Shown here in pieces: positions 5,428 through 24,046 of a DNA stretch of 24,046 nucleotides. The notes beneath the pieces are model-generated. The model ran no database searches. It saw only the letters and a list, made by a program, of their open reading frames with translations, and had not been told where the DNA came from. Source of the DNA: a virus (taxonomy: Duplodnaviria; Heunggongvirae; Uroviricota; Caudoviricetes); the IMG/VR virus record IMGVR_UViG_2617270979_000003, positions 1 through 24,046 of that record; one strand, given 5' to 3'. A program made the translations under genes and the position numbers. Within the stretch, counting starts at the first letter, position 1. Each line of letters opens with the position of its first letter.

Positions 5428-5564
5428 ATCTAAATATTCTTTCAATTATAACCACCTTGCTGCAATATTATGATTATACTGTATAAAATTTAACTCCTCT
5501 TAGATCTTACTTCACTGTTCCTTATGAAACAATCATCAAAATGAATCATATTGTAGTTAAGATT

Positions 5565-6989: not shown

Positions 6990-7385
6990 CTAACCTCGCA
7001 TGTCAAAGCCAGATTTCTGAAAATCTCTGTAGACTTCCGGATTGTTGAAGGCCGGAAATTTGGCTTTATGAGCTGCGGACTTTATCGCTTCGCAATAGGC
7101 TTTATCACCGTTACTGGTAGATATTTTTAACGCCGTGCCATCCTGAGAGAATTCCATATGCAACCTGCATTTTTTCCCTTTCCAGTTATGCGGCTCATCA
7201 AGTTTGGCATTAATTACAGCTCTGATTCCCCGCGCTTGCGCCCCCCATTCATCCTGATCATCCCAGCGTCCTGAACTGCAACTACCTGTAGCAGTAGTTT
7301 TGTGGCAATCTGAAGGGTGTAAAGGTGTGCATCCCGCAACAAAACCGACCCAAAAAGTCAACATAACGATTTTCTTTAATCCCAC
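6990..7385 (-). CDS. Lipoprotein with TolA C-terminal (domain III)-like domain, paralog 2
   Basis: Signal peptide with lipobox (FVAGC); C-terminal region (KKCRLHMEFSQDGTALKIS...GDKAYCEAIKSAAHKAKFPAFNNPEVYRDFQKSGFDMRG) is a diverged copy of the domain found in the neighbouring paralog. Confidence 0.65.
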   Translation of the reverse strand: MGLKKIVMLTFWVGFVAGCTPLHPSDCHKTTATGSCSSGRWDDQDEWGAQARGIRAVINAKLDEPHNWKGKKCRLHMEFSQDGTALKISTSNGDKAYCEAIKSAAHKAKFPAFNNPEVYRDFQKSGFDMRG

Positions 7386-7535
7386 TTCTTGCTCCTCAAT
7401 CCATTAAAATCTCAGCAATAGTAGTTGTTACGTCCGCCACTGGCTCAGAGCTGACTATCCGCTAAATTTAGCTCAGTGCCGTAGCTGTGTCAGAACAAAC
7501 CTAAGCCGAAACCGTTTATTACAAAACAATAAATA

Positions 7536-7964
7536 TCAGGGTTTAAAATCCAGCACCCCATTTTGAAATACTTTATATACTTCCGGCGAAGGGGGGGCAG
7601 GTATATCAGCATTCTTTATCGCATTCATCGCTTCACGACATAAATCGAGGTCTCCACTTTCTCTTTTAACCTCCAGTAGAAGGCCATTCGGGGCCATATG
7701 CATTCTCAGTGTACACTCTTTTCCTGAATACTTACTCGCATCCCCGAACTGTTTTTCGATGGCGCTCTTGATTTGATGGGCATACAGACGGATATCCTCA
7801 CTAACATCAGAAGTACGTTCAGATGAACTCACATACTGTGTCTCTATTGCTTTATCGGGGTAATATGATGTACGGTCATGATAATTTGTCGATACAGCAT
7901 CAGTGCACCCGATAATAATCCCACTAATAATCAACGTAAGAATTGATGCGCTACGAAAACCCAT
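7536..7964 (-). CDS. Lipoprotein with TolA C-terminal (domain III)-like domain, paralog 1
   Basis: Signal peptide with lipobox (IIGC); C-terminal HQIKSAIEKQFGDASKYSGKECTLRMHMAPNGLLLEVKRESGDLDLCREAMNAIKNADIPAPPSPEVYKVFQNGVLDFKP matches my recollection of the E. coli TolA C-terminus (..QIKSAIE..F.DAS.Y.GK.CTLR...AP.G.LL....GD..LC......IP.PPS..VY.VF.N..LDFKP). Confidence 0.75.
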   Translation of the reverse strand: MGFRSASILTLIISGIIIGCTDAVSTNYHDRTSYYPDKAIETQYVSSSERTSDVSEDIRLYAHQIKSAIEKQFGDASKYSGKECTLRMHMAPNGLLLEVKRESGDLDLCREAMNAIKNADIPAPPSPEVYKVFQNGVLDFKP

Positions 7965-8552
7965 TTTTCTTCACATATGTCATATAGTAAAGGATTATAT
8001 ATACCGTTGTTTTGGACGCTCAAACAGCGAATCAGATCAAATAAAACGCACATTTGTTAACATTTACACAAAGTCTGCGCGGGATATTCTGAAAGAATAT
8101 CCATAATGTGGAGAGAATCTATTGAAGTGCATGGTGCCGGGTGCCTCCCGGTGAACAAAATGTTCGTGATACCTGTCGGCGATAGAAAAGGTTAATGGTA
8201 TCACCCCACCGCACAGGGGGATTCACCATGCAGGAGTTTTCTTAGCAAACTCACTGCGCGCCCGGCAACTCCCAACCACATAAAATGCGGAGTTTGTGGC
8301 ATTTATGCATATAACTCGCAGGAATTATCTTAAAAAACTGATGTCGATCCGGATTAAAAAGAAGCAGGTCATCATCAGATGACTGGAAAAAAGGAAAACA
8401 AAAAATACTCATCATACAGTTTTGATTGCAGGGATGAGCCTGCTATGCACAATATGCAGAATATAAGCAAGATAAAAATATGCAGGCATATTATTTCGGA
8501 TTTTGTTATTAACACAACCTTTTTAATAATCATTTGGCATACAATAAACCAG

Positions 8553-8581
8553 CCCAAAAAGAACCGCCTAAACAGGCGGTT
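8553..8581 (-). terminator. Candidate intrinsic terminator on the minus strand (7-bp G+C stem, U-rich tail)
   Basis: AACCGCC / GGCGGTT stem with a 6-nt loop; on the minus strand it is followed by CTTTTTG. Confidence 0.35.
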
Positions 8582-8901
8582 GGTCAATACAAAGGATGCT
8601 TCGTCTTTATTATAGTAATCTGAGGCGTCGGGTGTCTTGTATCAGACAACATATTGTCCCGCTAAACAGCGAATTACAAACCACCCTGCAATGATCTCTC
8701 ATCTCATTTTATATGAGTTGACGACATCAGGATAACGCATCATCAGCCCCTGCCAAGAAATATCAAAACTCCCGCCAGCAATGTGTTATCACAATATTGT
8801 AAAAAAAACACAGCACCGAAACTATAACTGGTCTCTGTTATAATTTGGAGCAGAAAGACCAGTTGCCCAACTAGCAGCATTCTCCCCTGCTTTCCTGACG
8901 T

Positions 8902-8928
8902 AAAAAAACCGCATTAAGCGGTTTTTTT
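8902..8928. terminator. Bidirectional hairpin flanked by A7 and T7 runs; candidate tR'-like terminator downstream of the Q-like gene
   Basis: AAAAAAACCGC-ATTAA-GCGGTTTTTTT; lies about 100 bp downstream of the Q-like gene stop on the late-gene strand. Confidence 0.5.
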
Positions 8929-9008
8929 ACGATGTCCATGTCTGCAATCCGCCTCGCGATACAGCTTTGCGAAGCATAGCAAAATTGAAGCAGTTTATAC
9001 GTAAGAAA

Positions 9009-9464
9009 TCAAGCCATTTTATCAGCAAATGATTCACGCATGGGAATATATAGGGCATACTCAGCAACAGCTAACCAATTAGCAATCCGTTTTTCGCATG
9101 TGCTAAAACACCACTCTGGGTGTGCATCATTTAGCAATTCAGCCATTTTGCGCTTAGTCATCCCCCGCCCTTCATAGCGTTGCCGGAGAATGCAAATCAA
9201 TCCTGGATGCTCTGCCAGCACCTCACTTATGACTCGATCAATACATAACGCCTCTGCATCAGTACAATGCGCCAGCCAGCTCTTTTGCTTGCCGTTGATC
9301 ATCTCTCGCAAAAACGCTTCCAGCTCAGCTTTCTCTATTCCCGCTTTTTTCATTCTGCGCAGGGCTTCATTGATGGCTGTTTTCGTCAATTTTTTGGATG
9401 CCAACAACTGATTGAACATATTTCCTGACCTGCCACCGCCAATATACGACCAGCGCCCCCACAT
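9009..9464 (-). CDS. Putative late-gene antiterminator (Q-like); start uncertain
   Basis: Last ORF before a terminator hairpin and the lysis region; has a WGRW motif near the chosen start and several Cys pairs, reminiscent of Q-family proteins. The ORF-track start (9671) would overlap the upstream gene by over 120 nt, so an internal Met is preferred. Confidence 0.5.
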   Translation of the reverse strand: MWGRWSYIGGGRSGNMFNQLLASKKLTKTAINEALRRMKKAGIEKAELEAFLREMINGKQKSWLAHCTDAEALCIDRVISEVLAEHPGLICILRQRYEGRGMTKRKMAELLNDAHPEWCFSTCEKRIANWLAVAEYALYIPMRESFADKMA

Positions 9465-9547
9465 ACGCAGTTTGCCCTGAATCCAGACACTTTCCAGCGT
9501 TGCGAGACGAAGGTGTTCTCCGCTTTTTCCTGTATTCGTTGGGTAAA

Positions 9548-9838
9548 TCACAAATATCCCTCCTTTCTCCAGATTTCTTGTGTGCGAAAAACACCTTCTG
9601 CATGCATCAGGCGTAATTCTTCTTTGGTGTAATCGCTGGTTTTTACCCGCCCGTCGATTAGATCGTGGCATGAGCTACAGGCAATCGCCGCCTGCATATC
9701 GTGTGGTTTTGTCGCTGTTCCGCACGTTCCCGCCAGTCGGTAATGCGCCAGCACAGACGTTTCCGGATCGTGATTGCAGTAGCCAGGAATTCTGACGGCG
9801 CACATCTGCCCCCGCGCCGCTTTACGTAAATCCACCAT
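9548..9838 (-). CDS. Nin-region Cys-rich protein (YbcO-like, putative nuclease)
   Basis: 96-aa ORF with Cys clusters (CAVRIPGYCNH...CGT...ACSSCHD); resembles the DLP12 YbcO protein as I recall it; lies in the nin region upstream of Q. Confidence 0.55.
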   Translation of the reverse strand: MVDLRKAARGQMCAVRIPGYCNHDPETSVLAHYRLAGTCGTATKPHDMQAAIACSSCHDLIDGRVKTSDYTKEELRLMHAEGVFRTQEIWRKEGYL

Positions 9839-10437
9839 TACGCAAACTCCAGCAGCTGCGCGGCCACATTTTCGACTTGTTCCGGAGAGGAAAATTTACG
9901 GAACAGAATCCAGTTCCACAGCACATTCAGAACAGATTTATAAACCTGCTGAAACTCGACTTCGTCCATATTCGCAAAAGCGATGGATTTCGCCCGACGC
10001 CCATGGCTACCGTCCGGATAAAAATGTTCGGTGTAAAATCCAGCCTGAATGGTTACCCACTCGCGAAAAGCCTCAAACGACTTTAACAATGCCGTATCCC
10101 GGGTTCTGCGTGTCGCAACTGTATTCAGATATTGCTCTGCGGCATCACTCAGGGCTGGCGTGTGTTCCCGACCAACTGATTCGCACAGGTAATCAACGAA
10201 ACCAGACAGCAGTTTTCGTTCGCGAGGCGTGATCGCCCCACCGACCGGAGTCCAGTAATCAAATCCCAGTTGCAGGAGTTTGAAAAAACGCTTGTGGAAT
10301 GCGTAGTTACGCACACGCTTAAAGTCTGCGTGTATCCACTCGCCTATTTTGATTTGATGCAGAAAATCACAACTCTCCGGCGTCGCCGGGAGAAGTAATC
10401 CGGAAGAGGTTTGTTTGACCAGTTGTATATGCGCCAT
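9838..10437 (-). CDS. Conserved lambdoid nin-region protein of unknown function
   Basis: 199-aa ORF with ordinary codon usage, 1-nt overlap with the downstream gene; no motif I can name with confidence. Confidence 0.55.
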   Translation of the reverse strand: MAHIQLVKQTSSGLLLPATPESCDFLHQIKIGEWIHADFKRVRNYAFHKRFFKLLQLGFDYWTPVGGAITPRERKLLSGFVDYLCESVGREHTPALSDAAEQYLNTVATRRTRDTALLKSFEAFREWVTIQAGFYTEHFYPDGSHGRRAKSIAFANMDEVEFQQVYKSVLNVLWNWILFRKFSSPEQVENVAAQLLEFA

Positions 10438-10710
10438 TTCTCAATCTCTCGATGGCGCAGCGCAGCAGATGCCAGTTGTTCAGGCTGACGTATGAAGTAT
10501 AAATAAACTGGCTCCAGTGTAAAGCCCCCACCTTAATAGAATAAAAACCAAACAACAGATTGCTGGGATACAAACAACGCTTATTATTAAAAGCGGTTAA
10601 ACAAATTAAATTTTAATGTTATGCAAATTTGTCAGATCACCATAATATCTCATTTGAAAACCGCTGAAATAACAACCCTATCAGGATTAATCATATTAAG
10701 GTGAGTAAAT

Positions 10711-10797
10711 ATGGAAAACAACAAATCTGCACATTACGTTCCTTTTTTATCTGTAATACTTTTTGTTTTATGCTGTGCGTGGGCATTATTTTTATAA
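10711..10797 (+). CDS. Candidate small hydrophobic peptide (28 aa, MENNKSAHYVPFLSVILFVLCCAWALFL)
   Basis: ATG preceded by AAGGTGA at 7-nt spacing; single hydrophobic helix; below the ORF-track cutoff; convergent with hok. Confidence 0.3.
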   Translation: MENNKSAHYVPFLSVILFVLCCAWALFL

Positions 10798-10865
10798 AAA
10801 TATTTACAGATGAAATAAACCCGCCAATCAGGTTAACTGTGGCTGCGTTGAGGATGCATAATACA

Positions 10866-11114
10866 TCAGAGGTTGCGGGGATTTCTCCCCGCTGGTCCTC
10901 TTACTCCCCAAGTTCGTAAGCTGTGAAGACAGCGACCTCCGTCTGGTCGGTTCGGATTCGTACCTCGCAGAGGTCTTTCCTCGTTACCAGTACCGTCACT
11001 ATAACGGTTAAACAGATGACGATCAGGGTGATTAACATCGCCTTTTGCTGCTTCATAACCTGCTTCTCCTTGACCTTTTGGTCGGTAAGAGGCTAATCTA
11101 CGTATGCAAAGCAT
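10866..11114 (-). CDS. mok: Mok-like overlapping reading frame (translational coupler for hok)
   Basis: 82-codon ORF in another frame that starts 58 nt upstream of the hok ATG, spans hok and ends beyond its stop; GAGG 8 nt upstream of its ATG. Confidence 0.45.
   Translation of the reverse strand: MLCIRRLASYRPKGQGEAGYEAAKGDVNHPDRHLFNRYSDGTGNEERPLRGTNPNRPDGGRCLHSLRTWGVRGPAGRNPRNL
10901..11056 (-). CDS. hok: Hok/Gef-family type I toxin (51 aa)
   Basis: Hand translation of the minus strand gives MKQQKAMLITLIVICLTVIVTVLVTRKDLCEVRIRTDQTEVAVFTAYELGE, nearly identical to HokD/RelF as I recall it; absent from the ORF track because it is under 60 aa. Confidence 0.85.
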   Translation of the reverse strand: MKQQKAMLITLIVICLTVIVTVLVTRKDLCEVRIRTDQTEVAVFTAYELGE

Positions 11115-11170
11115 AGATGTGGCCTCAGATTAATGTTAAGCGTCTTGCCGGACGCGTAATGTTAACTGGG
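11106..11170 (+). ncRNA. sok: Predicted Sok-like antisense RNA (approximate boundaries)
   Basis: Plus-strand TTGACC (11070..11075), 18-bp spacer, TAATCT (11094..11099) would start a transcript complementary to the mok SD and start codon; 3' end not defined. Confidence 0.3.
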
Positions 11171-11481
11171 GCTTTTCTCTATCTGCCTTTGGTGTTCATG
11201 CCCGAGGCAGACAGCCTCAAGCACCCGCAGCAATTCTACTTAACTATCCTTTTCCCGCAAATCGTTTTATCCTCAACGCAAATTTCACCAGTCCCCCCAA
11301 CTCGTGTCCCTTACCCTAAGGCTGTTTCCCTCTTTACACAGAAGATAATTAATGTATTATTTTTTACAAACAATCAATTAAGAGCTATCTGTGGGTGGAG
11401 TCGACTTGCGGTAGCTTTTTCTTTTATGCATTGCACACATTCATGCTCTAATATATTCCTATATGTTCAAAAGGACTTTTC

Positions 11482-12414
11482 ATGCACAGCGTTAACTTCT
11501 ATTCATTCCGTGTGTTAACCCACAAGGGCAGCCGAACCAGCAAAAGACTAAACAACCTAGGTTTAAGCGATAAAAAAACAGCATATGAATTATTTGTTGA
11601 GTATTTTAATAGCTATAAAAACACACCTATTGAATTTGGTCTCTCGAAAACAAAGGTTTCTCTTGAACAACACACATCACTCACCTTTGATGCTCAAAAC
11701 CAAGTAATATATGGATATGTAAAGGTTGGGAAATATGGTGAGAGCAGTGAAATAAAAGACGATAAACTTACTAAAATACGTTATACAACAACTATCAACG
11801 ATGTAACTCTCAAACAGCGTTACATTTTAATATTTTTGCCAGACAATTTAGAAGAAGGGATTATAGCATTTCACGCTAATGACAATATTTCTGCTCGCAG
11901 CACACTCTCTGATGCATTACTAGACCACTTGAAAACAAAATATAAACTTGAAGCGAGAATCAATCCTCTTTGCCACAAAAAAATCCCCCAACACATCCTT
12001 GATTCAGAATTAAAACAAATAAAAGCCCAAGGTTACAAAGCACCAAAGGACATCACGGATTCATTCGGAAATAACAAAACAAACATCAAAACCGATTTGG
12101 TAATAAAAGCAAATCAAGGCGTATTTGGTAGTTTTAAAGACTTAAAAGACAAAAAACTAGGAAATATAATAGAAATAATTGAAGATAAGTGTGACGCAAT
12201 AAAAGTTAGTTTACAATTAGGCAATAGAACAGTCATTTTTAATTACGACACCATCTTAAGAAAAGGAATTTCTGCCGAATTAGATGATAACGACTTAAAC
12301 ATAAACGCATCTACAGGAATCCCCGATCTTAAAGCACTTCATGACACTGTTAAAATCATTGCGAATGATATACTAAGTGAGTTACATAGTGGTAATGGGG
12401 GATTAAAAATATGA
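11482..12414 (+). CDS. Hypothetical soluble protein (310 aa), first gene of an A+T-rich two-gene cassette
   Basis: Long ORF with AAGGA 6 nt upstream of the ATG; K/N/I/D-rich composition; no predicted TM segment; no catalytic motif I recognise. Confidence 0.7.
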   Translation: MHSVNFYSFRVLTHKGSRTSKRLNNLGLSDKKTAYELFVEYFNSYKNTPIEFGLSKTKVSLEQHTSLTFDAQNQVIYGYVKVGKYGESSEIKDDKLTKIRYTTTINDVTLKQRYILIFLPDNLEEGIIAFHANDNISARSTLSDALLDHLKTKYKLEARINPLCHKKIPQHILDSELKQIKAQGYKAPKDITDSFGNNKTNIKTDLVIKANQGVFGSFKDLKDKKLGNIIEIIEDKCDAIKVSLQLGNRTVIFNYDTILRKGISAELDDNDLNINASTGIPDLKALHDTVKIIANDILSELHSGNGGLKI

Positions 12415-12965
12415 ACAAGATTAACGTAATGAGTGTAATAAAAAAACATTACACAACAATGTCGGATCAACGCGGAAATATTTTACTCGAAGACATCGCA
12501 ATACACTTCATTATTCCTCTTACATTATCATTAATCATATGTTTTACCTATGGGATAATGAAAACCTCTATCGCATCTGTTTTTGTTAACTTTGGAGCAA
12601 TTACTACCGCACTGTTAATGAGCGCGGTTATTATGATCTACGATCAAAAACAAAAAACTGTATTTAAAATTTCAGACATTGAGGAAAACAACAAACCACG
12701 TTCAAATCTAATAATTTTAAATAATAATAAAACCGTATATGAGCAATTATGTCACAATGTTTCTTATGCTATATTAACATCTGTAGCGTTAGTTATTTTT
12801 TCGGTTGCAATATATTTTCTCCCAGAAACCCCAAGTGAATTAAAAAAATGGTATTTCGCAACCCCTGCTTACATAATCAGTTATTTAGCATACTCATCCT
12901 TCTTTTTTACCGTAGTAACATTCTTGATGGTTATAAAAAGATTTAGCACAATATTAGATAGTTAA
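12411..12965 (+). CDS. Hypothetical four-helix membrane protein (184 aa), second gene of the cassette
   Basis: Start overlaps the upstream stop (ATGA at 12411..12414); four hydrophobic segments at about residues 28-50, 55-77, 117-137 and 150-176. Confidence 0.7.
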   Translation: MNKINVMSVIKKHYTTMSDQRGNILLEDIAIHFIIPLTLSLIICFTYGIMKTSIASVFVNFGAITTALLMSAVIMIYDQKQKTVFKISDIEENNKPRSNLIILNNNKTVYEQLCHNVSYAILTSVALVIFSVAIYFLPETPSELKKWYFATPAYIISYLAYSSFFFTVVTFLMVIKRFSTILDS

Positions 12966-12976
12966 ACAATGAAACC

Positions 12977-13005
12977 ACCGCCCTTTCGGGCGGTTTCCTG
13001 ATTTT
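12977..13005 (+). terminator. Intrinsic terminator after the two-gene cassette
   Basis: ACCGCCC-TTTC-GGGCGGT stem-loop followed by TTCCTGATTTT, 12 nt after the stop codon. Confidence 0.6.
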
Positions 13006-13171
13006 ATGAGGGTGCAGAAATACCTCCGGCTAAGGATTAAATTTTATTTACAGTGCTAACTTAATTATTCATGCGTGCGAAGTTGTTCCGCGCAAAGATC
13101 GTTAAATGCGCCCGCCCGAACTTCAGCAAGTAAAGCATTGACAGCGACTACCCACGGATAGTTAATCTTGT

Positions 13172-13609
13172 TCACCACACAACCTCCTGAATATTTCCAT
13201 GGTAGAACGCGAGTACACGCTGCATAACTTCTCTCTTCAGGCACTCGCGACAGATTATGTTCAGACGCCTGTCGTAACGGCGTATTTCTCCGTCTGGTAA
13301 TGACCAGATAAGGTCAGGATCAACCACAACCGGTTTCTTCACCTTTGCCCTTGATAGTTTTTTGCGGGCGTTTTGCCAGTCTTTACGCGCCTGCTCAGAC
13401 GGGAATAATCCGTAGCCTGAATTGTAAACATCACCACTGGCGACCAGTTCTCTGGCGAGAGTGCTTATGTAATACCTTGATGCACCGGTTTTAGCCTCCA
13501 GAGCCCGTAACGTCTCGCGACCGCTCAGACGTACAAGTTCAACAACCTGCCCTTTAATTTTTTCCCGCTCTTCTGGTGTAAATACTTTTGCCATAGGTGC
13601 CTCCGGCAA
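13172..13609 (-). CDS. Hypothetical DNA-binding protein (HTH-like segment, C-terminal CxxC)
   Basis: 145-aa ORF; segment LRALEAKTGASRYYISTLARELVASG looks like a helix-turn-helix; CRECL near the C-terminus; start abuts the upstream gene stop. Confidence 0.5.
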   Translation of the reverse strand: MPEAPMAKVFTPEEREKIKGQVVELVRLSGRETLRALEAKTGASRYYISTLARELVASGDVYNSGYGLFPSEQARKDWQNARKKLSRAKVKKPVVVDPDLIWSLPDGEIRRYDRRLNIICRECLKREVMQRVLAFYHGNIQEVVW

Positions 13610-14026
13610 TCACTTTTCCGATGCAACATGGCGGGAAGAATCAGTAATCTGTCGTACAATATCCCTGTGCTTGTTCAGCTCCCGCAGCGCGGCGCAGACA
13701 CGCTCCCACTTCTGGACATGATTTTTCGCCCGACGCAGTTCGCGGTTTGCCATATGCAGTGATGGTAAAACCAGGTCATCCGCTCGCGTTTCAGTAAACG
13801 ATGGCAGCGACTGCACAATGTCCGCCACAGTTTCTGTTTTAATATCTTCCTGTGTTGCAGCCTCCTGTACTGGTAACGCAACACCTGCGGGCTGAGGAAA
13901 GGCCTTACCAGCAGTTTCCGCTACCGATGCTGCTTTCGGCTCTGCTGGTAAATTATCGCCCGGTATGCAGTAACGAAATTTACCGCCCTGATTTACGCGA
14001 AGCAGACGACCTTTGCTGATTGCCAT
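13610..14026 (-). CDS. Hypothetical protein in the replication region; start uncertain
   Basis: The 190-codon ORF overlaps the 3' end of the ydaU-like gene by about 200 nt in another frame; an internal Met (MAISKG...) reduces the overlap to 47 nt. Confidence 0.4.
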
Positions 14027-14876
14027 TGCCAGCGTTGAAGCCACTTTGCGTGATGTGGTACCAAACAATGTACCCCCTGAAGCCTGGCGGGATCGCACTA
14101 TCCGGTAACGAGACGGTGTTAACCTGTCGGAGTAACGTCTCAGGTCGAACACCTTTCGGCGCGAACAAGCCCTGGTATTCATTGGCGATGCTGTGTCGAA
14201 TCACCTGCTCAGGTGAAAAACCCTGCTGGCGGAATTTTTCCAGCTCCCGTATCGCCCCGTTAGCGCCCTGCTCCGTTCGAATCGGTTTTCGCAATGCCTG
14301 GCGAAATTCAACCCACTCACGCCAAAGCGAGACAGAAATCCAGTTCGGCAAAGTAATATCCAGAGGGTCAAACTTTTTGACACCTCGATTCCCCCGGGGG
14401 GGATTTAGGGGGGGATCTGTTTTTAGATCTTTATCTGTATCTTTATTAGTTGCCTTTGTGTTGACATCATGTTCAAACACCACTTCAACATCTGTTTGAA
14501 CACCTGTTAAATTTCTCTCTTGTTTTGTTTGAACATCTGCTTCCTTTCTGCTTCTTCTGGCCTGAACAGATGCTTTTCCTGCGGCTGATTTTTTGGTTAA
14601 TTTTTCCCTGACTGATGCCAGATCTTCCTCAATCCGAAGATGCACCCATTCCTCGCCGTTATCGCAAAAAAACTCCTGCAAGGATGGTTCAACATCAGCC
14701 CATCGCTCGTTAGTCAGACGGGCAATTTTTGCCAGCCTGTTTTTAGGTATTGGCTTTCCTGTTTGCCAGTAATTGAACATCAGCAACAAATACGCACCAT
14801 GCTCCTCTGCTGACAAATGCATGGTGTCAGCCAGGTAATCAGCTATGTACAGTTGCATGTATGGTAATGCGGCCAT
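13980..14876 (-). CDS. ydaU: YdaU-like (DUF1376-type) putative replication initiation protein
   Basis: N-terminus [37 protein letters not shown]; position downstream of ydaS-ydaT as in Rac; contains two G7 homopolymer tracts. Confidence 0.7.
14391..14414. repeat. Homopolymer cluster C5G7 ... G7 inside the ydaU-like gene
   Basis: Read directly: CCCCCGGGGGGG ATTTA GGGGGGG. Confidence 0.9.
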
Positions 14877-14939
14877 AATTGCCCCGTATGATGCTGCCCG
14901 GTGGCTTAGAATAAGCACAAACAGCATGGAAACTTTTGC

Positions 14940-15362
14940 TTAATGAACAATGACAGAATCGTCGGAAGAACCGCCGCCGCTGAAATGCGCTTTCCGGTAA
15001 ACGGCTTGGACTGCATCATCATGCGCATCAATTGCCGTACTTAACGCTTCCTGCGCCGCCAGTAATGCACGGCGTTCCAGGGTATCGAAGATGCAGAGTC
15101 GGTGACGCAGCTCGCGCGGAAGGATTGCCAGAATTGCTGGGATCAGCTTCTGAATTTTTTCTCTTTGCGTTTTCGTTTCACCTTTCAACCAACGGTGATA
15201 GATATTCTGCTGATTGTTCCAGTCCTTGCCTGGAACCAGGGGCAATTCGCCGCCCCCCTGGCGCAGATATTCTTCAGTAATTGCATTGGCTACCCATGCC
15301 TGCCCTTTTTCGGCTGCTAGGGCAAACAACACTGATTCGATGTGCTCATGCTTGATTTTCAT
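14940..15362 (-). CDS. ydaT: YdaT (Rac immunity-region protein, toxic partner of YdaS)
   Basis: 140-aa ORF directly downstream of ydaS; length and N-terminus match my recollection of Rac YdaT. Confidence 0.85.
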   Translation of the reverse strand: MKIKHEHIESVLFALAAEKGQAWVANAITEEYLRQGGGELPLVPGKDWNNQQNIYHRWLKGETKTQREKIQKLIPAILAILPRELRHRLCIFDTLERRALLAAQEALSTAIDAHDDAVQAVYRKAHFSGGGSSDDSVIVH

Positions 15363-15384
15363 GAATCATTTGCCTCTTGATGTT

Positions 15385-15681
15385 TCAGGTATGATCAAAT
15401 GAGGATTTGTTACTGTCATTTAGTTGCTTCACTGACATATTCTGCGAACAACATGCCGAACGTCGTAAATATGACCAGTCAATATCAGGACGAAGTTCTT
15501 CGCACAGAACCTCACCTCTTGTTGCACGTTCAATTGCTGGACATCTCTCGGCAGGCAATTGACGTACCCCTTTGATCCATTGATTTACGCTTGGAGGTGA
15601 TACACCTAAAAGCCTAGCCATTGCTGATTGCCCACCGACAACAGCACAAGCTTGCTTGAATGAATAGTTCTCTTTTTTCAT
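15385..15681 (-). CDS. ydaS: YdaS (Cro-like HTH protein)
   Basis: 98-aa ORF divergent from racR, beginning MKKENYSFKQACAVVGGQSAMARLLGVSPPSVNQWIKG (HTH); GGAG 8 nt upstream of the ATG. Confidence 0.85.
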   Translation of the reverse strand: MKKENYSFKQACAVVGGQSAMARLLGVSPPSVNQWIKGVRQLPAERCPAIERATRGEVLCEELRPDIDWSYLRRSACCSQNMSVKQLNDSNKSSFDHT

Positions 15682-15708
15682 CGAATGAACTCCAAAAACA
15701 CACAGAAA

Positions 15709-15753
15709 ATATTAGGCGACGCCTAACGCAATTGTCAATAGGCTGTGCCTAAT
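15709..15753 (-). promoter_or_regulatory. ydaS promoter (-35 TTGACA, -10 TAATAT) overlapped by operator palindromes TTAGGCG-A-CGCCTAA and TAGGC-TGT-GCCTA
   Basis: Minus strand: TTGACA (15738..15733), 18-bp spacer, TAATAT (15714..15709); perfect 7-bp-arm palindrome at 15712..15726 within spacer/-10; second palindrome at 15737..15749 overlapping the -35. Confidence 0.5.
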
Positions 15754-15805
15754 GCAGTAAGGGTAGGGATTGACTAATGTAATGCGCATAGGAGAATATT
15801 AAGCA

Positions 15806-16282
15806 ATGCTTAGTGGTAAAAACTTAGGCCGAGCGATAGAGCAGGCCATTAACAAAAAAATCGCATCGGGATCCGTCAAATCAAAGGCGGAGGTCGCACG
15901 CCACTTTAAAGTCCAACCACCATCAATTTATGACTGGATTAAGAAAGGCTCTATAAGTAAAGATAAACTTCCAGAATTATGGCGTTTCTTTTCTGATGTT
16001 GTTGGTCCAGAGCATTGGGGGCTTAACGAATACCCCATACCAACCCCCACCAATTCAGATACAAAAAGTGAACTTTTAGATATAAACAACCTTTATCAAG
16101 CAGCCTCTGATGAAATAAGAGCGATTGTAGCTTTCCTGTTATCTGGAAATGCTACAGAACCAGATTGGGTTGACCACGATGTTCGCGCCTACATAGCAGC
16201 GATGGAAATGAAAGTGGGTAAGTATCTGAAAGCTCTTGAATCTGAACGGAAAAGCCAGAACATCACAAAAACTGGAACTTAA
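15806..16282 (+). CDS. racR: RacR prophage repressor
   Basis: 158-aa ORF divergent from ydaS, with an HTH-like N-terminal region; length and context match Rac RacR. Confidence 0.85.
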   Translation: MLSGKNLGRAIEQAINKKIASGSVKSKAEVARHFKVQPPSIYDWIKKGSISKDKLPELWRFFSDVVGPEHWGLNEYPIPTPTNSDTKSELLDINNLYQAASDEIRAIVAFLLSGNATEPDWVDHDVRAYIAAMEMKVGKYLKALESERKSQNITKTGT

Positions 16283-16377
16283 ACTTATATGGTCTGACGG
16301 AAAACTCCTGGATTCCGTTATTTAACCCCCCCATCACTTTCTGCTGTCGCCATCACCTATTAGGTTACGCTCAAAAC

Positions 16378-16421
16378 ATTAGGCATAGCCTATTGACAAC
16401 CAATTAGGCATTACCTATAGT
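16378..16421 (+). promoter_or_regulatory. pL-like rightward promoter (-35 TTGACA, 17-bp spacer, -10 TATAGT) overlapped by operator palindromes; inverted copy of the ydaS promoter/operator element
   Basis: ATTAGGCATAGCCTATTGACAAC (16378..16400) is 21/23 identical to the reverse complement of 15731..15753; -35 at 16393..16398, -10 at 16416..16421; TAGGC-ATA-GCCTA palindrome at 16380..16392. Confidence 0.5.
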
Positions 16422-16590
16422 TCCAGCATGCCACCCACCCCGCCCCACAGAACGCCGGGCAATACTTCGAGTTACCAGGCAGTGGTAAGGGGTTAAGTAG
16501 CCAGCCCGAGGCGTATGAACATGACGGCGGGATTCAAATTTTGCAGTGCAGCAGTTAGTTCCGCCACCCGGCGTTAATGGGAGAGATAAG

Positions 16591-16725
16591 ATGGTGCATT
16601 ACGAAGTAGTTCAGTATTTGATGGATTGTTGCGGTATCACTTACAACCAGGCTGTGCAGGCTTTACGCAGCAACGACTGGGATCTCTGGCAGGCAGAAGT
16701 CGCTATACGTAGCAACAAGATGTGA
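16591..16725 (+). CDS. ydaG: Small protein YdaG-like (44 aa)
   Basis: Hand translation MVHYEVVQYLMDCCGITYNQAVQALRSNDWDLWQAEVAIRSNKM; GGGAGAG upstream; Rac has 44- and 51-aa genes between racR and sieB; symbol assignment from memory. Confidence 0.5.
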   Translation: MVHYEVVQYLMDCCGITYNQAVQALRSNDWDLWQAEVAIRSNKM

Positions 16726-16735
16726 GATTCGCAAA

Positions 16736-16891
16736 ATGCAAAAAATCGACCTCGGCAACAACGAATCCCTGGTGTGCGGCGTGTTCCCCAACCAGGATGG
16801 AACGTTCACTGCCATGACGTATACCAAAAGCAAAACATTTAAAACCGAAACTGGTGCGCGCCGATGGTTGGAGAAGCACACAGTAAGCTAA
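16736..16891 (+). CDS. ydaF: Small protein YdaF-like (51 aa)
   Basis: Hand translation MQKIDLGNNESLVCGVFPNQDGTFTAMTYTKSKTFKTETGARRWLEKHTVS; stop overlaps the convergent sieB stop. Confidence 0.5.
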   Translation: MQKIDLGNNESLVCGVFPNQDGTFTAMTYTKSKTFKTETGARRWLEKHTVS

Positions 16892-17376
16892 CGATTAAAA
16901 CGTCTACTCCTGCTGTTCCAGAATAACTTCATAAAATGGGAGTATTTTTCGGTGACGAGATAATAAGAACAGTTTGCGCTATCACTCTGATGTTGAATGA
17001 TGCCCTTCCGTTCTAATTTTTTCATAACCGGGTTACGGCAAGGAGAAGTGATAATAAGATTTCCTGTTTTAAGGAAATCTTTAAATACAGCGATTTCTTT
17101 CTCAGATAAACGAAGCAATACTCGTTGCTCTGGTAGTAATGAATAATGCTTTTGAATATGTGCTCGCAATCTTGAGAAGGAAATGGCGACCACGAAAGAA
17201 AAGGCAAAAACGATAATCTGAAAGAGCCAAGGTATTTCAGTATAAGCATTGAATGCGACAGTAAACTCTTTCGGTATCAGCCAGAGAGTGAGACCAAAAA
17301 TGATAATCGTATACATAAGTCTTTCGAGTGGCTCGTTAGCAAAAAGTTTCAACAATGGAGTAAATACATCCAACAT
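16888..17376 (-). CDS. sieB: Superinfection exclusion protein SieB
   Basis: From the internal Met (MLDVFTPLLKLF...) the product is 162 aa with two hydrophobic segments, matching Rac SieB length; the upstream extension in the ORF track is unlikely to be translated. Confidence 0.8.
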   Translation of the reverse strand: MLDVFTPLLKLFANEPLERLMYTIIIFGLTLWLIPKEFTVAFNAYTEIPWLFQIIVFAFSFVVAISFSRLRAHIQKHYSLLPEQRVLLRLSEKEIAVFKDFLKTGNLIITSPCRNPVMKKLERKGIIQHQSDSANCSYYLVTEKYSHFMKLFWNSRSRRFNR

Positions 17377-17594
17377 ATCAATAACTCTCAACTGTAAGGG
17401 TATTGAAATGTTAACACAAGCTCTCGCTGTAGGGGTATAGCCGAGACCACCGAAGCCCGGAGGTGGTGAAATAAAACCGGGCACAACACGAAGGCGCATT
17501 TCCGATATCCATAAAGAGTCGGTCTTGTCTGTTAAATTTAAATGGTGGGAGTGCGCCTCCGGTTGTAAATAACGACATTGCTGTGTGTAGTCCT

Positions 17595-17642
17595 GGCGGC
17601 ATCAGTTTTTTTCTTGAAGTTCGGCTGATGTCCGCCCTTTTT
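17595..17642 (+). terminator. Candidate plus-strand terminator-like hairpin upstream of kilR
   Basis: GGCGGCATCAG ... CTGATG(T)CCGCC: 11 bp with a 1-nt bulge and a 19-nt loop, followed by CTTTTTAAAG. Confidence 0.3.
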
Positions 17643-17817
17643 AAAGTGAATTTTGTGATGCGGTGAATGCGGCTAAGCGCACGTGGCACAGTTAAAAGTC
17701 ATGTTAGTCCTTATTGGTTTGGGTGGGAAAGCCGACTGTAATTGTTAACTGGTTGCAGTCACCTGGAGGCACCAGACACCGCATCAACAAAGTTCATTTG
17801 TAAAAATGGAGATAATT

Positions 17818-18039
17818 ATGATTGCACATCACTTCGGAACTGATGAAATACCACGTCAGTGTGTGACTCCTGGCGATTATGTTCTTCATGAAGGCCGGAC
17901 ATATATTGCCTCGGCAAACAATATTAAAAAGCGAAAACTATATATTCGTAACCTGACCACAAAAACATTCATTACTGACCGCATGATTAAAGTCTTCCTC
18001 GGTCGTGATGGTTTACCTGTAAAGGCGGAGTCATGGTGA
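17818..18039 (+). CDS. kilR: KilR, FtsZ-inhibiting killing protein
   Basis: 73-aa product [73 protein letters not shown] matches Rac KilR as I recall it. Confidence 0.85.
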
Positions 18040-18209
18040 TGACTAAGAAAATAAAATGTGCTTACCACCTTTGCAAAAAAGACGTTGAAGAAAGCAAAGC
18101 TATTGAAAGAATGCTTCACTTCATGCACGGGATTTTATCAAAAGACGAACCGAGAAAATATTGCAGTGAAGCTTGTACCGAAAAAGACCAGATGGCACAT
18201 GAACTTTAA
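18039..18209 (+). CDS. ydaE: YdaE-like small Cys-rich protein (56 aa)
   Basis: Hand translation [56 protein letters not shown]; start overlaps the kilR stop (TGATG). Confidence 0.7.
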   Translation: MTKKIKCAYHLCKKDVEESKAIERMLHFMHGILSKDEPRKYCSEACTEKDQMAHEL

Positions 18210-18283
18210 TTAATTGACTATTCGAAACTGAATTTATGCCAGAAATGGCAGGTATTCGCTCAACCTTAATTAAGGAGAAAAAC

Positions 18284-18559
18284 ATGATTACCAATTATGA
18301 AGCCACTGTTGTAACTACCGATGACATTGTTCACGAGGTGAATCTGGAAGGAAAGCGCATTGGCTACGTAATTAAAACAGAAAATAAAGAAACCCCATTC
18401 ACTGTGGTTGATATCGATGGTCCATCAGGCAACGTAAAAACACTTGATGAAGGTGTCAAAAAAATGTGCCTGGTGCATATCGGAAAGAATCTGCCCGCAG
18501 AAAAAAAAGCCGAATTTCTGGCAACTCTAATTGCAATGAAATTAAAAGGTGAAATCTGA
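18284..18559 (+). CDS. racC: RacC
   Basis: 91-aa product from MITNYEATVV... with AAGGAG upstream; position between ydaE and recE. Confidence 0.75.
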   Translation: MITNYEATVVTTDDIVHEVNLEGKRIGYVIKTENKETPFTVVDIDGPSGNVKTLDEGVKKMCLVHIGKNLPAEKKAEFLATLIAMKLKGEI

Positions 18560-18564
18560 AAGAA

Positions 18565-18589
18565 ATAGCCTGCGTATGGCGCAGGCTAT
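18565..18589. other. Perfect 10-bp stem hairpin (ATAGCCTGCG-TATGG-CGCAGGCTAT) between racC and recE
   Basis: Read directly; no U-tract on the plus strand. Confidence 0.6.
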
Positions 18590-18660
18590 GAACAGTGTGT
18601 ATCCGGCAAGATCATTCACTGAACAAAACGAATTTTAATCTGAGTTGAGGTTAAAAAACA

Positions 18661-21261
18661 ATGAGCACAAAACCACTCTTCCTGTTACGGAAAGCGAAAA
18701 AATCATCCGGTGAACCTGACGTCGTCCTGTGGGCAAGCAACGATTTTGAATCGACCTGTGCCACTCTGGACTACCTGATCGTTAAGTCAGGTAAAAAACT
18801 GAGCAGCTATTTTAAAGCTGTTGCCACGAATTTTCCTGTCGTTAATGACCTGCCCGCTGAAGGTGAGATCGATTTTACCTGGAGTGAACGCTATCAACTC
18901 AGCAAAGACTCCATGACATGGGAACTAAAACCGGGAGCAGCACCAGACAACGCTCACTATCAAGGCAATACCAACGTCAACGGCGAAGACATGACTGAGA
19001 TTGAGGAGAATATGCTACTCCCAATTTCTGGCCAGGAACTGCCCATTCGTTGGCTTGCTCAACACGGCAGCGAAAAACCGGTAACGCACGTTTCACGCGA
19101 CGGACTCCAGGCATTACACATTGCTCGGGCTGAAGAACTACCGGCTGTTACTGCCCTGGCTGTTTCCCACAAAACCAGCCTGCTCGACCCGCTGGAAATT
19201 CGCGAACTCCACAAACTGGTTCGTGACACTGACAAAGTTTTCCCTAATCCTGGTAATTCAAACCTGGGACTGATAACTGCTTTTTTCGAAGCATACCTGA
19301 ACGCTGACTACACCGATCGAGGACTGCTGACAAAAGAGTGGGTGAAGGGTAATCGTGTTTCACACATCACTCGCACGGCTTCCGGTGCTAATGCTGGCGG
19401 CGGAAACCTCACCGATCGCGGCGAAGGTTTCGTACACGATCTGACGTCACTGGCGCGCGACGTAGCCACTGGCGTACTGGCCCGTTCAATGGATCTGGAC
19501 ATCTATAACCTTCATCCGGCACACGCTAAACGCATTGAGGAAATTATCGCTGAAAATAAACCGCCCTTTTCTGTTTTCCGCGACAAATTCATCACCATGC
19601 CTGGCGGGCTGGATTATTCCCGCGCCATCGTGGTTGCGTCCGTAAAAGAAGCACCAATTGGGATCGAGGTCATCCCCGCGCACGTCACTGAATATCTGAA
19701 CAAAGTACTGACTGAAACCGATCATGCCAACCCTGATCCGGAAATCGTGGATATTGCCTGCGGTCGCTCCTCTGCCCCGATGCCGCAGCGAGTAACAGAA
19801 GAAGGAAAACAGGATGATGAAGAAAAACCGCAACCATCTGGAACAACGGCATTTGAACAGGGAGAGGCTGAAACAATGGAACCGGACGCAACTGAACATC
19901 ATCAGGACACGCAGCCGCTGGATGCTCAGTCACAGGTAAATTCTGTTGATGCGAAATATCAGGAACTGCGGGCAGAACTCCATGAAGCCCGGAAAAACAT
20001 TCCATCAAAAAATCCTGTCGATGCCGATAAATTGCTTGCTGCATCACGTGGTGAATTTGTTGACGGAATTAGCGACCCGAACGATCCGAAATGGGTAAAG
20101 GGGATCCAGACTCGCGATTGTGTGTACCAGAACCAGCCAGAAACGGAAAAAACCAGCCCGGATATGAATCAACCTGAGCCAGTAGTGCAACAGGAACCGG
20201 AAATAGCCTGCAATGCCTGCGGCCAGACTGGCGGGGATAACTGCCCTGACTGTGGTGCGGTGATGGGCGACGCAACATACCAGGAAACATTCGATGAAGA
20301 GAGTCAGGTTGAAGCTAAGGAAAATGATCCGGAGGAAATGGAAGGCGCTGAACATCCGCACAATGAGAATGCTGGCAGCGATCCGCATCGCGATTGCAGT
20401 GATGAAACTGGCGAAGTCGCAGATCCCGTAATCGTAGAAGACATAGAGCCAGGTATTTATTACGGAATTTCGAATGAGAATTACCACGCGGGTCCCGGTG
20501 TCAGTAAGTCTCAGCTCGATGACATTGCTGATACTCCGGCACTGTATTTGTGGCGTAAAAATGCCCCCGTGGACACCACAAAGACAAAAACGCTCGATTT
20601 AGGAACCGCTTTCCACTGCCGGGTACTTGAGCCGGAAGAATTCAGTAACCGCTTTATCGTAGCACCTGAATTTAACCGCCGGACAAACTCCGGAAAAGAA
20701 GAAGAGAAAGCGTTTCTGAGGGAATGCGCAAGCACAGGAAAAACGGTTATCACTGCCGAAGAAGGCCGGAAAATTGAACTCATGTATCAGAGCGTTATGG
20801 CTTTGCCGCTGGGGCAATGGCTTGTTGAAAGCGCCGGACACGCTGAATCATCAATTTACTGGGAAGATCCTGAAACAGCAATTTTGTGTCGGTGCCGTCC
20901 GGACAAAATTATCCCTGAATTTCACTGGATCATGGACGTGAAAACTACGGCGGATATTCAACGATTCAAAACCGCTTATTACGACTACCGCTATCACGTT
21001 CAGGATGCATTCTACAGTGACGGTTATGAAGCACAGTTTGGAGTGCAGCCAACTTTCGTTTTTCTGGTTGCCAGCACAACTATTGAATGCGGACGTTATC
21101 CGGTTGAAATTTTCATGATGGGCGAAGAAGCAAAACTGGCAGGTCAGCTGGAATATCACCGCAATCTGCGAACCCTGGCTGACTGCCTCAATACCGATGA
21201 ATGGCCAGCTATTAAGACGTTATCACTGCCCCGCTGGGCTAAGGAATATGCAAATGACTAA
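18661..21261 (+). CDS. recE: Exodeoxyribonuclease VIII (RecE)
   Basis: 866-aa ORF with an acidic, low-complexity middle region and a C-terminal nuclease domain; overlaps the recT start; length matches RecE. Confidence 0.9.
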
Positions 21262-22063
21262 GCAACCACCAATCGCAAAAGCCGATCTGCAAAAAACTCA
21301 GGGAAACCGTGCACCAGCAGCAATTAAAAATAACGACGTGATTAGTTTTATTAACCAGCCATCAATGAAAGAGCAACTGGCAGCAGCTCTTCCACGCCAT
21401 ATGACGGCTGAACGTATGATCCGTATCGCCACCACAGAAATTCGTAAAGTTCCGGCGTTAGGAAACTGTGACACTATGAGTTTTGTCAGTGCAATCGTAC
21501 AGTGTTCACAGCTCGGACTTGAGCCCGGTAGCGCCCTCGGTCATGCATATTTACTGCCTTTTGGTAATAAAAACGAAAAGAGCGGTAAAAAAAACGTTCA
21601 GCTAATCATTGGCTATCGCGGCATGATTGATCTGGCTCGCCGTTCAGGTCAAATCGCCAGCTTGTCAGCCCGTGTTGTCCGTGAAGGTGACGAGTTTAAT
21701 TTCGAATTTGGCCTTGATGAAAAGTTAATACACCGCCCAGGAGAAAACGAAGATGCCCCTGTTACCCACGTCTATGCTGTCGCAAGACTGAAAGACGGAG
21801 GTACTCAGTTTGAAGTTATGACGCGCAAACAGATTGAGCTGGTGCGCAGCCAGAGTAAAGCTGGTAATAACGGGCCGTGGGTAACTCACTGGGAAGAAAT
21901 GGCAAAGAAAACGGCTATTCGTCGCCTGTTCAAATATCTGCCCGTATCAATTGAGATCCAGCGTGCAGTATCAATGGATGAAAAGGAACCACTGACAATC
22001 GATCCTGCAGATTCCTCTGTATTAACCGGGGAATACAGTGTAATCGATAATTCAGAGGAATAA
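21254..22063 (+). CDS. recT: Single-strand annealing protein RecT
   Basis: 269-aa product from [25 protein letters not shown]...; ATG lies 8 nt inside the 3' end of recE. Confidence 0.9.
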
Positions 22064-22118
22064 TTCAGCCTGGCGGTGTAATGCACCGCCAACTTGAAAT
22101 ATTTTTATGAGAAAAATT

Positions 22119-22268
22119 ATGAGATATGACAATGTTAAACCATGTCCATTTTGTGGTTGTCCATCAGTAACGGTGAAAGCCATTTCAGGATATTACCGAG
22201 CGAAGTGTAACGGATGCGAATCCCGAACCGGTTATGGTGGAAGTGAAAAAGAAGCACTCGAACGATGA
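22119..22268 (+). CDS. ralR: RalR/Lar-like Cys4 toxin / restriction-alleviation protein, ending at an in-frame TGA after 49 codons
   Basis: MRYDNVKPCPFCGCPSVTVKAISGYYRAKCNGCESRTGYGGSEKEALER then TGA; reading through the TGA gives 14 more codons to a TAA at 22311..22313, i.e. exactly the 64 aa I recall for Lar/RalR. Confidence 0.65.
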   Translation: MRYDNVKPCPFCGCPSVTVKAISGYYRAKCNGCESRTGYGGSEKEALER

Positions 22269-22305
22269 AATAAACGAACCACTGGAAATAATAATGGAGG
22301 TGTTC

Positions 22306-22494
22306 ATGTATAAAATTACCGCCACTATTGAAAAGGAAGGTGGCACTCCTACTAACTGGACAAGATATTCAAAATCTAAACTAACGAAATCAGAATGCGA
22401 AAAAATGCTCTCAGGTAAAAAAGAAGCAGGCGTTTCCAGAGAGCAGAAAGTAAAACTGATAAATTTTAATTGCGAGAAACTTCAGTCCTCGTGA
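22306..22494 (+). CDS. ydaC: YdaC-like small protein
   Basis: ORF MYKITATIEKEGGTPTNWTRYSKSKLTKSECEKMLSGKKEAGVSREQKVKLINFNCEKLQSS with GGAGG 5 nt upstream of this ATG; alternative in-frame ATG at 22294. Confidence 0.55.
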   Translation: MYKITATIEKEGGTPTNWTRYSKSKLTKSECEKMLSGKKEAGVSREQKVKLINFNCEKLQSS

Positions 22495-22593
22495 ATTGCA
22501 TTGTATTCAAATTAAAACTTCATAGCTGATTATTAATAATCAACATCGGGCGTCAATTTAAGTCTAACATTGGCGCCTGCCAGAGGTGATGCG

Positions 22594-22809
22594 ATGGCAC
22601 AAGTAATCTTTAATGAAGAGTGGATGGTTGAATACGGCCTGATGCTTCGCACTAGTCTGGGGGCCAGACAAATTGAAGCATACCGCCAGAACTGTTGGGT
22701 GGAAGGCTTCCACTTCAAACGAGTATCTCCTTTAGGGAAGCCAGACAGTAAGCGAGGGATTATCTGGTATAACTATCCAAAGATAAATCAGTTTATCAAA
22801 GACTCATGA
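22594..22809 (+). CDS. xisR: Excisionase-like protein (XisR/YdaQ)
   Basis: 71-aa product [44 protein letters not shown]... immediately upstream of the integrase, stop 1 nt before the int start. Confidence 0.75.
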
Positions 22810-22810
22810 T

Positions 22811-24046
22811 ATGTCTAAATTACCAACAGGTGTCGAGATTCGAGGTAAATACATTCGCATCTGGTTCATGTTTCGAGGAAAACGATGTCGGGAAACATTG
22901 AAAGACTGGGAGGTTACTAACAGTAACATTAAAAAAGCCGGGAATTTAAGAGCGTTGATAGTTCATGAAATCAATTCCGGTGAGTTTGAGTATTTAAGAC
23001 GTTTTCCCCAGTCCAGCACTGGGGCAAAAATGGTGACAACGAGGGTCATAAAAACGTTCGGGGAGCTTTGTGATATCTGGACAAAAATTAAAGAAACAGA
23101 GTTAACAACAAACACAATGAAGAAAACGAAATCACAATTAAAAACACTCAGGATAATAATTTGTGAGAGTACTCCGATATCGCATATTCGTTATAGCGAT
23201 ATCTTAAACTACCGGAATGAACTGCTGCATGGAGAAACGCTTTACCTGGATAATCCAAGATCCAACAAAAAAGGAAGAACCGTGCGCACAGTTGATAACT
23301 ATATCGCCCTGCTCTGTTCGTTGTTACGTTTTGCGTATCAGTCGGGATTTATATCAACCAAACCATTTGAAGGAGTAAAGAAATTACAGAGAAACAGAAT
23401 AAAGCCTGACCCGTTATCTAAAACAGAATTCAATGCATTAATGGAAAGTGAAAAAGGACAGAGCCAGAACTTGTGGAAATTTGCCGTATACTCCGGGCTT
23501 CGTCACGGGGAACTGGCTGCTCTGGCGTGGGAGGATGTGGATTTCGAGAAGGGAGTTGTGAATGTCAGAAGAAACCTGACGATACTGGATATGTTCGGTC
23601 CCCCAAAAACAAATGCGGGGATCCGGACGGTAACACTACTGCAGCCTGCTCTTGAAGCACTGAAGGAGCAATACAAACTGACCGGGCATCATCGCAAAAG
23701 CGAAATCACCTTTTATCATCGGGAGTACGGCAGAACCGAAAAGCAAAAACTGCATTTTGTTTTCATGCCCAGGGTGTGTAACGGAAAACAAAAACCTTAT
23801 TACTCGGTAAGCAGTTTGGGGGCAAGGTGGAATGCAGCAGTAAAACGTGCTGGTATTCGCCGCCGTAATCCGTACCATACGCGGCATACTTTTGCCTGCT
23901 GGCTGTTGACGGCAGGAGCGAACCCGGCATTTATAGCCAGCCAAATGGGGCATGAAACTGCGCAGATGGTGTATGAAATTTACGGTATGTGGATTGATGA
24001 CATGAACGACGAACAGGTAGCCATGTTGAATGCGCGGTTATCATAG
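22811..24046 (+). CDS. intR: Tyrosine-family site-specific integrase
   Basis: 411-aa ORF with catalytic-domain signatures (GLRHGEL, HTRHTFA, C-terminal Tyr region EIYGMWI); ends at the window edge. Confidence 0.9.
   Translation: MSKLPTGVEIRGKYIRIWFMFRGKRCRETLKDWEVTNSNIKKAGNLRALIVHEINSGEFEYLRRFPQSSTGAKMVTTRVIKTFGELCDIWTKIKETELTTNTMKKTKSQLKTLRIIICESTPISHIRYSDILNYRNELLHGETLYLDNPRSNKKGRTVRTVDNYIALLCSLLRFAYQSGFISTKPFEGVKKLQRNRIKPDPLSKTEFNALMESEKGQSQNLWKFAVYSGLRHGELAALAWEDVDFEKGVVNVRRNLTILDMFGPPKTNAGIRTVTLLQPALEALKEQYKLTGHHRKSEITFYHREYGRTEKQKLHFVFMPRVCNGKQKPYYSVSSLGARWNAAVKRAGIRRRNPYHTRHTFACWLLTAGANPAFIASQMGHETAQMVYEIYGMWIDDMNDEQVAMLNARLS

Follow-up and report, generated by a model that had tools for sequence, protein, structure and literature searches.

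The ralR locus

The locus described here consists of a small toxin gene, ralR, the adjacent gene rcbA and an antitoxin RNA, RalA, that is encoded within rcbA on the opposite strand. It lies near the end of a stretch of 24,046 nucleotides, which as a whole is called the window. The plus-strand gene ralR starts with the ATG at 22119 and, according to the ORF list and the translation of the window, has 49 sense codons before a TGA at 22266-22268. In the same frame 14 more codons follow until a TAA at 22311-22313. Translated on the plus strand, 22119-22313 reads MRYDNVKPCPFCGCPSVTVKAISGYYRAKCNGCESRTGYGGSEKEALER, a stop, NKRTTGNNNGGVHV and a second stop; this interrupted frame, as given in the original prediction, is thus confirmed. 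The 49-residue product keeps the Cys4 zinc ribbon (CPFCG ... CxxC) with C9, C12, C30 and C33. The features of the locus are:

22119..22268, plus strand: ralR coding sequence in its present form, 49 codons and TGA; Cys4 zinc ribbon and most of the single helix
22241..22256, plus strand: RalA target in the ralR mRNA, 16 nt, AAGTGAAAAAGAAGCA; identical to K-12, sequence as in Guo et al. 2014
22263..22263, plus strand: synonymous marker C (CGA versus AGA, Arg49), which defines the haplotype that gave rise to the common TGA allele
22266..22268, plus strand: premature stop TGA (W50*); the mutated base, 22268, is G in K-12 and all outgroups and A in the window
22269..22313, plus strand: the former C-terminal 14 codons, NKRTTGNNNGGVHV, and the TAA of full-length ralR, now untranslated
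22306..22494, plus strand: rcbA/ydaC (DUF1187), 62 aa; Pfam PF06688, 132 bits, profile positions 1-61 of 61
22312..22490, minus strand: RalA antitoxin sRNA, full length of 179 nt; Rfam RF02694, 225.1 bits; identical to K-12
22413..22428, minus strand: pairing element within RalA, 16 nt, on the plus strand AGGTAAAAAAGAAGCA; as in Guo et al. 2014

In K-12 MG1655, ralR (b1348) comprises 195 nt and 64 aa and is flanked by recT and rcbA, with the ralA sRNA gene (b4714) on the opposite strand. What had been stated of this system in advance holds: RalR of K-12 has 64 aa and is the DNase toxin of a type I toxin-antitoxin (TA) pair, and RalA is the antitoxin sRNA. The idea that the reference RalR might end at the same position does not; the K-12 protein runs to 64 aa. 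Base for base, the window from 22060 to 22570 differs from K-12 MG1655 in five places. Within the ralR ORF the sole differences are A to C at 22263 (AGA to CGA, R49, synonymous) and G to A at 22268 (TGG to TGA, W50*). The remaining three are a shorter T-run 5' of ralR, A to T at 22492 in the rcbA stop, and one intergenic change near 22563. The proposed single-base change from TGG to TGA is fully borne out when the window is aligned to K-12 and four further Rac-type copies. The base named for inspection, 22267, is G in both alleles, and the one that actually changed is 22268, the third position of the codon. The T-run, at about 22100-22106 in the 5' leader or promoter region and some 15 nt upstream of the ralR ATG, has 5 T versus 6 T in K-12. 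A promoter and terminator scan of the ralR locus yielded nothing above shuffled expectation.

The antitoxin is complete. Its Rfam match (RF02694) covers model positions 1-179 of 179 with 225.1 bits versus a gathering score of 170. The predicted fold has a G at its start and a terminator hairpin with UUUU at its end, as described by Guo et al. 2014. The complementarity of 16 nt between 22241-22256 in ralR and 22413-22428 in RalA is unchanged in both partners when compared with K-12, and the target site lies 10 nt upstream of the new ralR stop. Repression of toxin translation by RalA is Hfq-dependent (Guo et al. 2014). The locus is, in short, a type I TA module with an orphan antitoxin: RalA is present, while the toxin ORF is broken at codon 50.

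The gene rcbA deserves a comment of its own. At 62 aa it is shorter than the 69-aa protein of K-12, and we considered that it might be truncated too. This idea was rejected, since the 62 residues span the whole DUF1187 profile and the TGA is common to Rac-SA53, 683R6 and pPE4. The stop (22492-22494) is TGA in four of the five Rac-type copies and AGA only in K-12; judged by this distribution, the 69-aa form of K-12 is a derived stop-loss extension and the 62-aa form is ancestral. The polymorphic base, 22492, lies 2 bases upstream of the RalA 5' end (22490). It is the sole difference from K-12 close to RalA, and haplotypes with intact ralR have it too. The former 3' end of ralR (22269-22313) holds the Shine-Dalgarno sequence of rcbA, GGAGG (22296-22300), and overlaps the rcbA start.

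Prophage context

The window is a mosaic Rac-type prophage. Positions 14071-24046 are 99.1% identical to the part of K-12 Rac between the ydaU region and intR; positions 1-6009 match the pinR/tfaR/stfR/trkG segments of K-12 Rac, with deletions, and 6010-13921 is absent from K-12 Rac. As one contiguous piece at 100% identity, the whole window occurs in no complete genome of the collection.

The segment that K-12 Rac lacks has its own peculiarities. Three co-oriented overlapping ORFs of 133, 310 and 184 aa (11117-12965, plus strand) run opposite to the neighbouring minus-strand prophage genes; searches of Pfam, PADLOC and NCBIfam gave no match to any of them. Possibly they form an accessory or moron cassette that sits in a variable hotspot. 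On the minus strand, two adjacent ORFs (6990-7385 and 7536-7964) carry a TolA C-terminal domain (PF06519; 53.6 and 82.6 bits).

Frequency and origin of the allele

Allele counts were obtained with 80-nt queries in the 5426 complete E. coli genomes, the band of at least 99% identity being equivalent to an exact match. For codons 49-50 they are:

CGA-TGA (window): 308 of 5426
AGA-TGG (K-12): 1113 of 5426
CGA-TGG: 121 of 5426
AGA-TGA: 0 of 5426
CGA-TAG: 0 of 5426
AGA-TAG: 1 of 5426

Between about 1760 and 1890 E. coli genomes have the ralR segment, and about one in six of them (some 17%) carries the allele of the window. At least 1000 contigs encode the exact 49-aa protein, and three deposited prophage records also have the allele. 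Many independent complete genomes share a 521-nt segment around ralR at 100% identity. The genomes with the identical allele come from cattle, humans, pigs, beef, a crow, and river or creek water, and include O26, O103 and O111 strains. In complete genomes the TGA is consistently linked to the synonymous CGA marker. That the codon might owe its existence to a sequencing or assembly error, as had been considered, is refuted by these population data: 308 complete genomes, three phage records, at least 1000 contigs and the linkage to CGA leave this explanation a probability close to nil. The phage records were also considered as evidence that viable phages carry the allele. This was rejected; they are PHASTER-predicted prophages, not sequenced virions.

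The direction of the change is clear. In an alignment of five Rac-type copies, K-12 and 683R6, a prophage, have TGG as codon 50, as do Rac-SA53, a complete Rac-type phage that is about 94% identical, and the pPE4 record (about 92% identical); TGA occurs only in the lineage of the window. With TGG in all outgroups, TGA is the derived state. The common TGA allele arose on the CGA haplotype, because an intact CGA-TGG exists and AGA-TGA is absent from complete genomes. W50* is a genuine, naturally circulating, derived and common allele.

One of the outgroups is unusual. The record PP818812.1 ('Actinobacillus phage vB_Apl-pPE4'), attributed to Actinobacillus pleuropneumoniae, contains recT, ralR and rcbA in a segment that is about 92% identical to Rac of E. 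coli, with ralR left unannotated; an Actinobacillus host looks odd for an Escherichia Rac-type module.

What the stop removes

RalR belongs to the Lar family (Pfam PF14354, Lar_restr_allev). The 64-aa protein matches the profile with residues 5-54, covering positions 2-58 of 58 with 53.5 bits; the 49-aa form reaches positions 2-52 of 58 with 39 bits (cut-off 28.6). A profile built from five full-length natural RalR homologs retrieved 3968 relatives from 1.84 billion representative proteins. When the best 145 of these 3968 representatives were aligned with HMMER (201 domains), the four Cys columns proved to be 95-97% Cys, and in the same 201 domains Trp occupies the W50 column in 96%, Asn the N51 column in 93% and Arg the R53 column in 84%, while 62% have R or K at position 52. 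When 79 single-domain Lar proteins, which are 30-77% identical to RalR, were aligned with MAFFT, the only invariant columns were C9, P10, F11, C12, G13, C30, C33, W50, N51 and R53. Across the family, W50, N51 and R53 thus appear, in these alignments, to be as conserved as the cysteines of the zinc ribbon. Among the aligned members examined (the 79-member MAFFT alignment), no Lar sequence ends before the WN(R/K)R motif. The 49-aa RalR does: it ends at R49 and is devoid of this family-invariant motif, which closes the helix.

A search for a solved structure of the Lar family gave none by sequence and, by fold, only generic zinc ribbons (0 hits at E ≤ 0.001). An AlphaFold2 model calculated from the 79-member alignment (mean pLDDT 78) has strands at 17-22 and 25-30 and a single helix at 43-52. 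The pLDDT is about 87 as far as residue 50, and from about residue 54 onwards the tail is modelled with low confidence. According to this model, the stop would delete the last turn of the only alpha-helix together with the whole invariant motif.

The functional consequences can be judged against the experiments of Guo et al. 2014 (PMC4041452). There, over-production of the 64-aa RalR lowered the CFU about 10^3-fold, and the protein cleaved DNA as a non-specific, Mg2+/Ca2+-dependent DNase; toxicity of the K-12 protein was seen only on over-expression. Error-prone PCR is reported to have yielded changes at residues 14, 37, 39, 49, 51 and 52 that reduce toxicity; these are substitutions, not truncations. 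In the same study, purified RalR K52Q failed to cleave DNA. With residues 51-52 absent and W50, N51 and R53 invariant family-wide, the most likely outcome is that the toxin's activity is lost or strongly attenuated. The 49-aa RalR is therefore most likely non-functional, be it null or strongly attenuated, if the family alignments and the substitutions are a guide to the loss of toxicity. The original prediction that the change may inactivate or attenuate the toxin has thereby gained strength: what is lost comprises the invariant W50, N51 and R53 and also residues 51-52, which are needed for toxicity and DNase activity (Guo et al.).

The G to A transition at 22268 truncated RalR to 49 aa and left the zinc ribbon in place. 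Loss of the helix end and of the WN(K/R)R motif would disable the toxin. With RalA, its 16-nt target site and rcbA untouched, the outcome would be a type I TA module in which the toxin is disabled and the antitoxin an orphan. We consider this reading as a whole, a real derived W50* allele with a probably disabled toxin and an intact, orphan RalA, to be well supported and quite likely correct. The truncated ORF is free of further decay; it exists in hundreds of identical copies, and an independent sign of relaxed constraint is absent. Possibly the allele is just young.

Apparently recurrent hits on the same motif

The window is not the only place where this part of RalR has suffered. The complete genome of strain LSN03-016011/A (NZ_CP035884.1) contains a 150-nt ralR that encodes the same 49-aa protein and ends with TAG. 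It belongs to the K-12-type haplotype, with AGA as codon 49 and a 69-aa rcbA, and is annotated as WP_001443846.1. Given this sequence background, the TAG at codon 50 is an independent event. A rare 49-aa variant with D5 (P0166, nine contigs) places the TGA on three further haplotypes in draft assemblies, one of which is AGA-TGA with a clearly diverged 5' backbone. Overall, TGA at codon 50 is found on at least four haplotypes, a pattern that calls for repeated mutation unless recombination broke within a few bases of the site.

Other natural E. coli alleles of ralR (P0181, P0183 and P0002) affect the same residues: R53Q (360 contigs), N51D (339 contigs) and W50S. Frameshifted forms of ralR and fusions of ralR with rcbA are also present among the natural alleles. 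Taken together, these variants suggest that the W50-N51-R53 motif is repeatedly hit in resident prophages. The Trp codon is the only one that is turned into a stop by two different transitions. Recurrence at W50 is therefore unsurprising if loss of the toxin is tolerated or favoured, since RalR has a single Trp and its codon is two transitions from a stop.

The fusions merit a remark. In other E. coli genomes, RalR-RcbA fusion proteins of 67 aa (P0012) and 96 aa (P0015) are encoded. The 67-aa protein has its junction precisely at the 16-nt repeat (GGSEKEA|GVSREQK...); this implies that the repeat copies in ralR and RalA recombined and the DNA between them was deleted. A deletion of this type would remove the C-terminus of the toxin and most of RalA.

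Other readings of the stop

UGA is the leakiest stop in E. coli. With A as the next base it terminates relatively weakly, and read-through is raised by an acidic residue at -2. The stop could accordingly be leaky: a near-cognate tRNA-Trp would insert Trp and rebuild exactly the ancestral residue, so that the precise 64-aa RalR would be made at roughly percent output as an attenuated toxin policed by RalA. Neither the 14 downstream codons nor the RalA system is damaged, and TGA is found in 308 genomes versus a single one with TAG. The excess of TGA over TAG, however, is equally explained by the expansion of one lineage, and conservation of the downstream codons is uninformative, as these carry the Shine-Dalgarno sequence and start of rcbA and the allele shows zero divergence. 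The very existence of the TAG allele means that a tight stop at codon 50 is tolerated. The RNA 3' of the UGA does not help either: it forms neither a stimulatory structure nor a SECIS-like hairpin, its first 29 nt are unpaired, and the minimum free energy is -6.2 kcal/mol with z = 0.01. Nor is the UGA conserved in any diverged homolog, all outgroups having TGG/Trp and the 79-member family alignment having Trp. Selenocysteine insertion or another programmed recoding, which we also considered, is not supported for the same reasons, i.e., no hairpin after the UGA and no conservation of the stop. Finally, K-12 RalR is toxic only when over-expressed, and read-through at the percent level is unlikely to matter. 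We therefore regard the leaky stop as improbable. Its extension, a UGA that serves as a dosage dial for weak wild-type RalR under RalA, with the motif hits reflecting selection to tune down and not merely lose the toxin, is a shade less probable still.

The truncated protein might also have kept a function, such as restriction alleviation or the binding of a partner, or might be non-toxic or dominant-negative, which would mean that the functions of RalR can be separated. Two different activities have indeed been assigned to Lar and RalR in the literature. King and Murray are said to have described the restriction-alleviation activity of Lar in 1995, and its sequence requirements might differ from those of toxicity. 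The zinc ribbon and most of the helix remain, the family thresholds are still passed, and hundreds of genomes have the truncated ORF without any change. The last point loses its weight if the allele is recent, since perfect conservation is then to be expected. Whatever the true function of the family may be, the W50, N51 and R53 that are deleted equal the zinc ligands in their invariance, and no aligned family sequence that we examined ends before the motif. A residual or separated function must thus be rated as rather unlikely, about on a par with the dosage dial. A real W50* allele with a probably disabled toxin and an orphan RalA is the reading that we prefer.

Comparison with known systems

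[quoted passage not shown] 2014). The synteny, recE-recT-ralR-rcbA/RalA-xisR-intR, is the same, residues 1-49 of the toxin are 100% identical, and RalA and both 16-nt pairing elements are identical. In contrast to K-12, the toxin of the window stops at codon 50 instead of 65 and loses WNKRTTGNNNGGVHV; codon 49 is CGA instead of AGA, the 5' T-run is one base shorter, and rcbA encodes 62 instead of 69 aa. With the Lar family at large (PF14354; TIGR03655, anti_R_Lar) it shares the CPFCG...C..C zinc-ribbon core and the helix that follows, but it is without the C-terminal WN(R/K)R that every full-length member examined carries. Degenerate or orphaned TA loci of prophages likewise combine a single nonsense change in the toxin with an intact antitoxin and a high population frequency. 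Here, however, the antitoxin is an sRNA embedded antisense in rcbA, and its persistence need not reflect selection for the antitoxin.

Annotation hides the truncation. Genomes with the identical allele have the 150-nt ralR annotated as a coding sequence, with WP_001443846.1 as its product. In the RalR equivalog model NCBIfam NF007260 the 49-aa form scores 126.9 bits versus a cut-off of 113, though it covers only positions 1-49 of 64, and with TIGR03655 it barely passes (40.3 bits versus a cut-off of 39.6). Because the 49 residues pass the NF007260 cut-off, PGAP assigns the full product name and no pseudogene flag. A prophage survey of clinical isolates lists the truncated product as 'the toxin RalR'. 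In the searchable literature we found no paper that discusses a truncated ralR allele; a search on the Lar family or PF14354 gave nothing informative, and the EcoSal 2025 review on restriction-modification does not mention Lar or RalR. We are dealing with a loss-of-function polymorphism of an ordinary kind in a prophage TA toxin that is well known, and the 49-aa product already has a RefSeq accession of its own.

Implications

Carriers of the 49-aa form include O26, O103 and O111 strains as well as carbapenemase-producing clinical isolates, and censuses of TA systems and prophage inventories of 'defence/toxin' genes over-count functional RalR. Isolates that are toxin-minus and antitoxin-plus could be used to separate the antitoxin role of RalA, the 'double-strand-break reduction' phenotype of rcbA and the toxicity of RalR, which are entangled in K-12. 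For the Lar family, which is structurally uncharacterised, the repeated hits at W50, N51 and R53 mark a functional hotspot.
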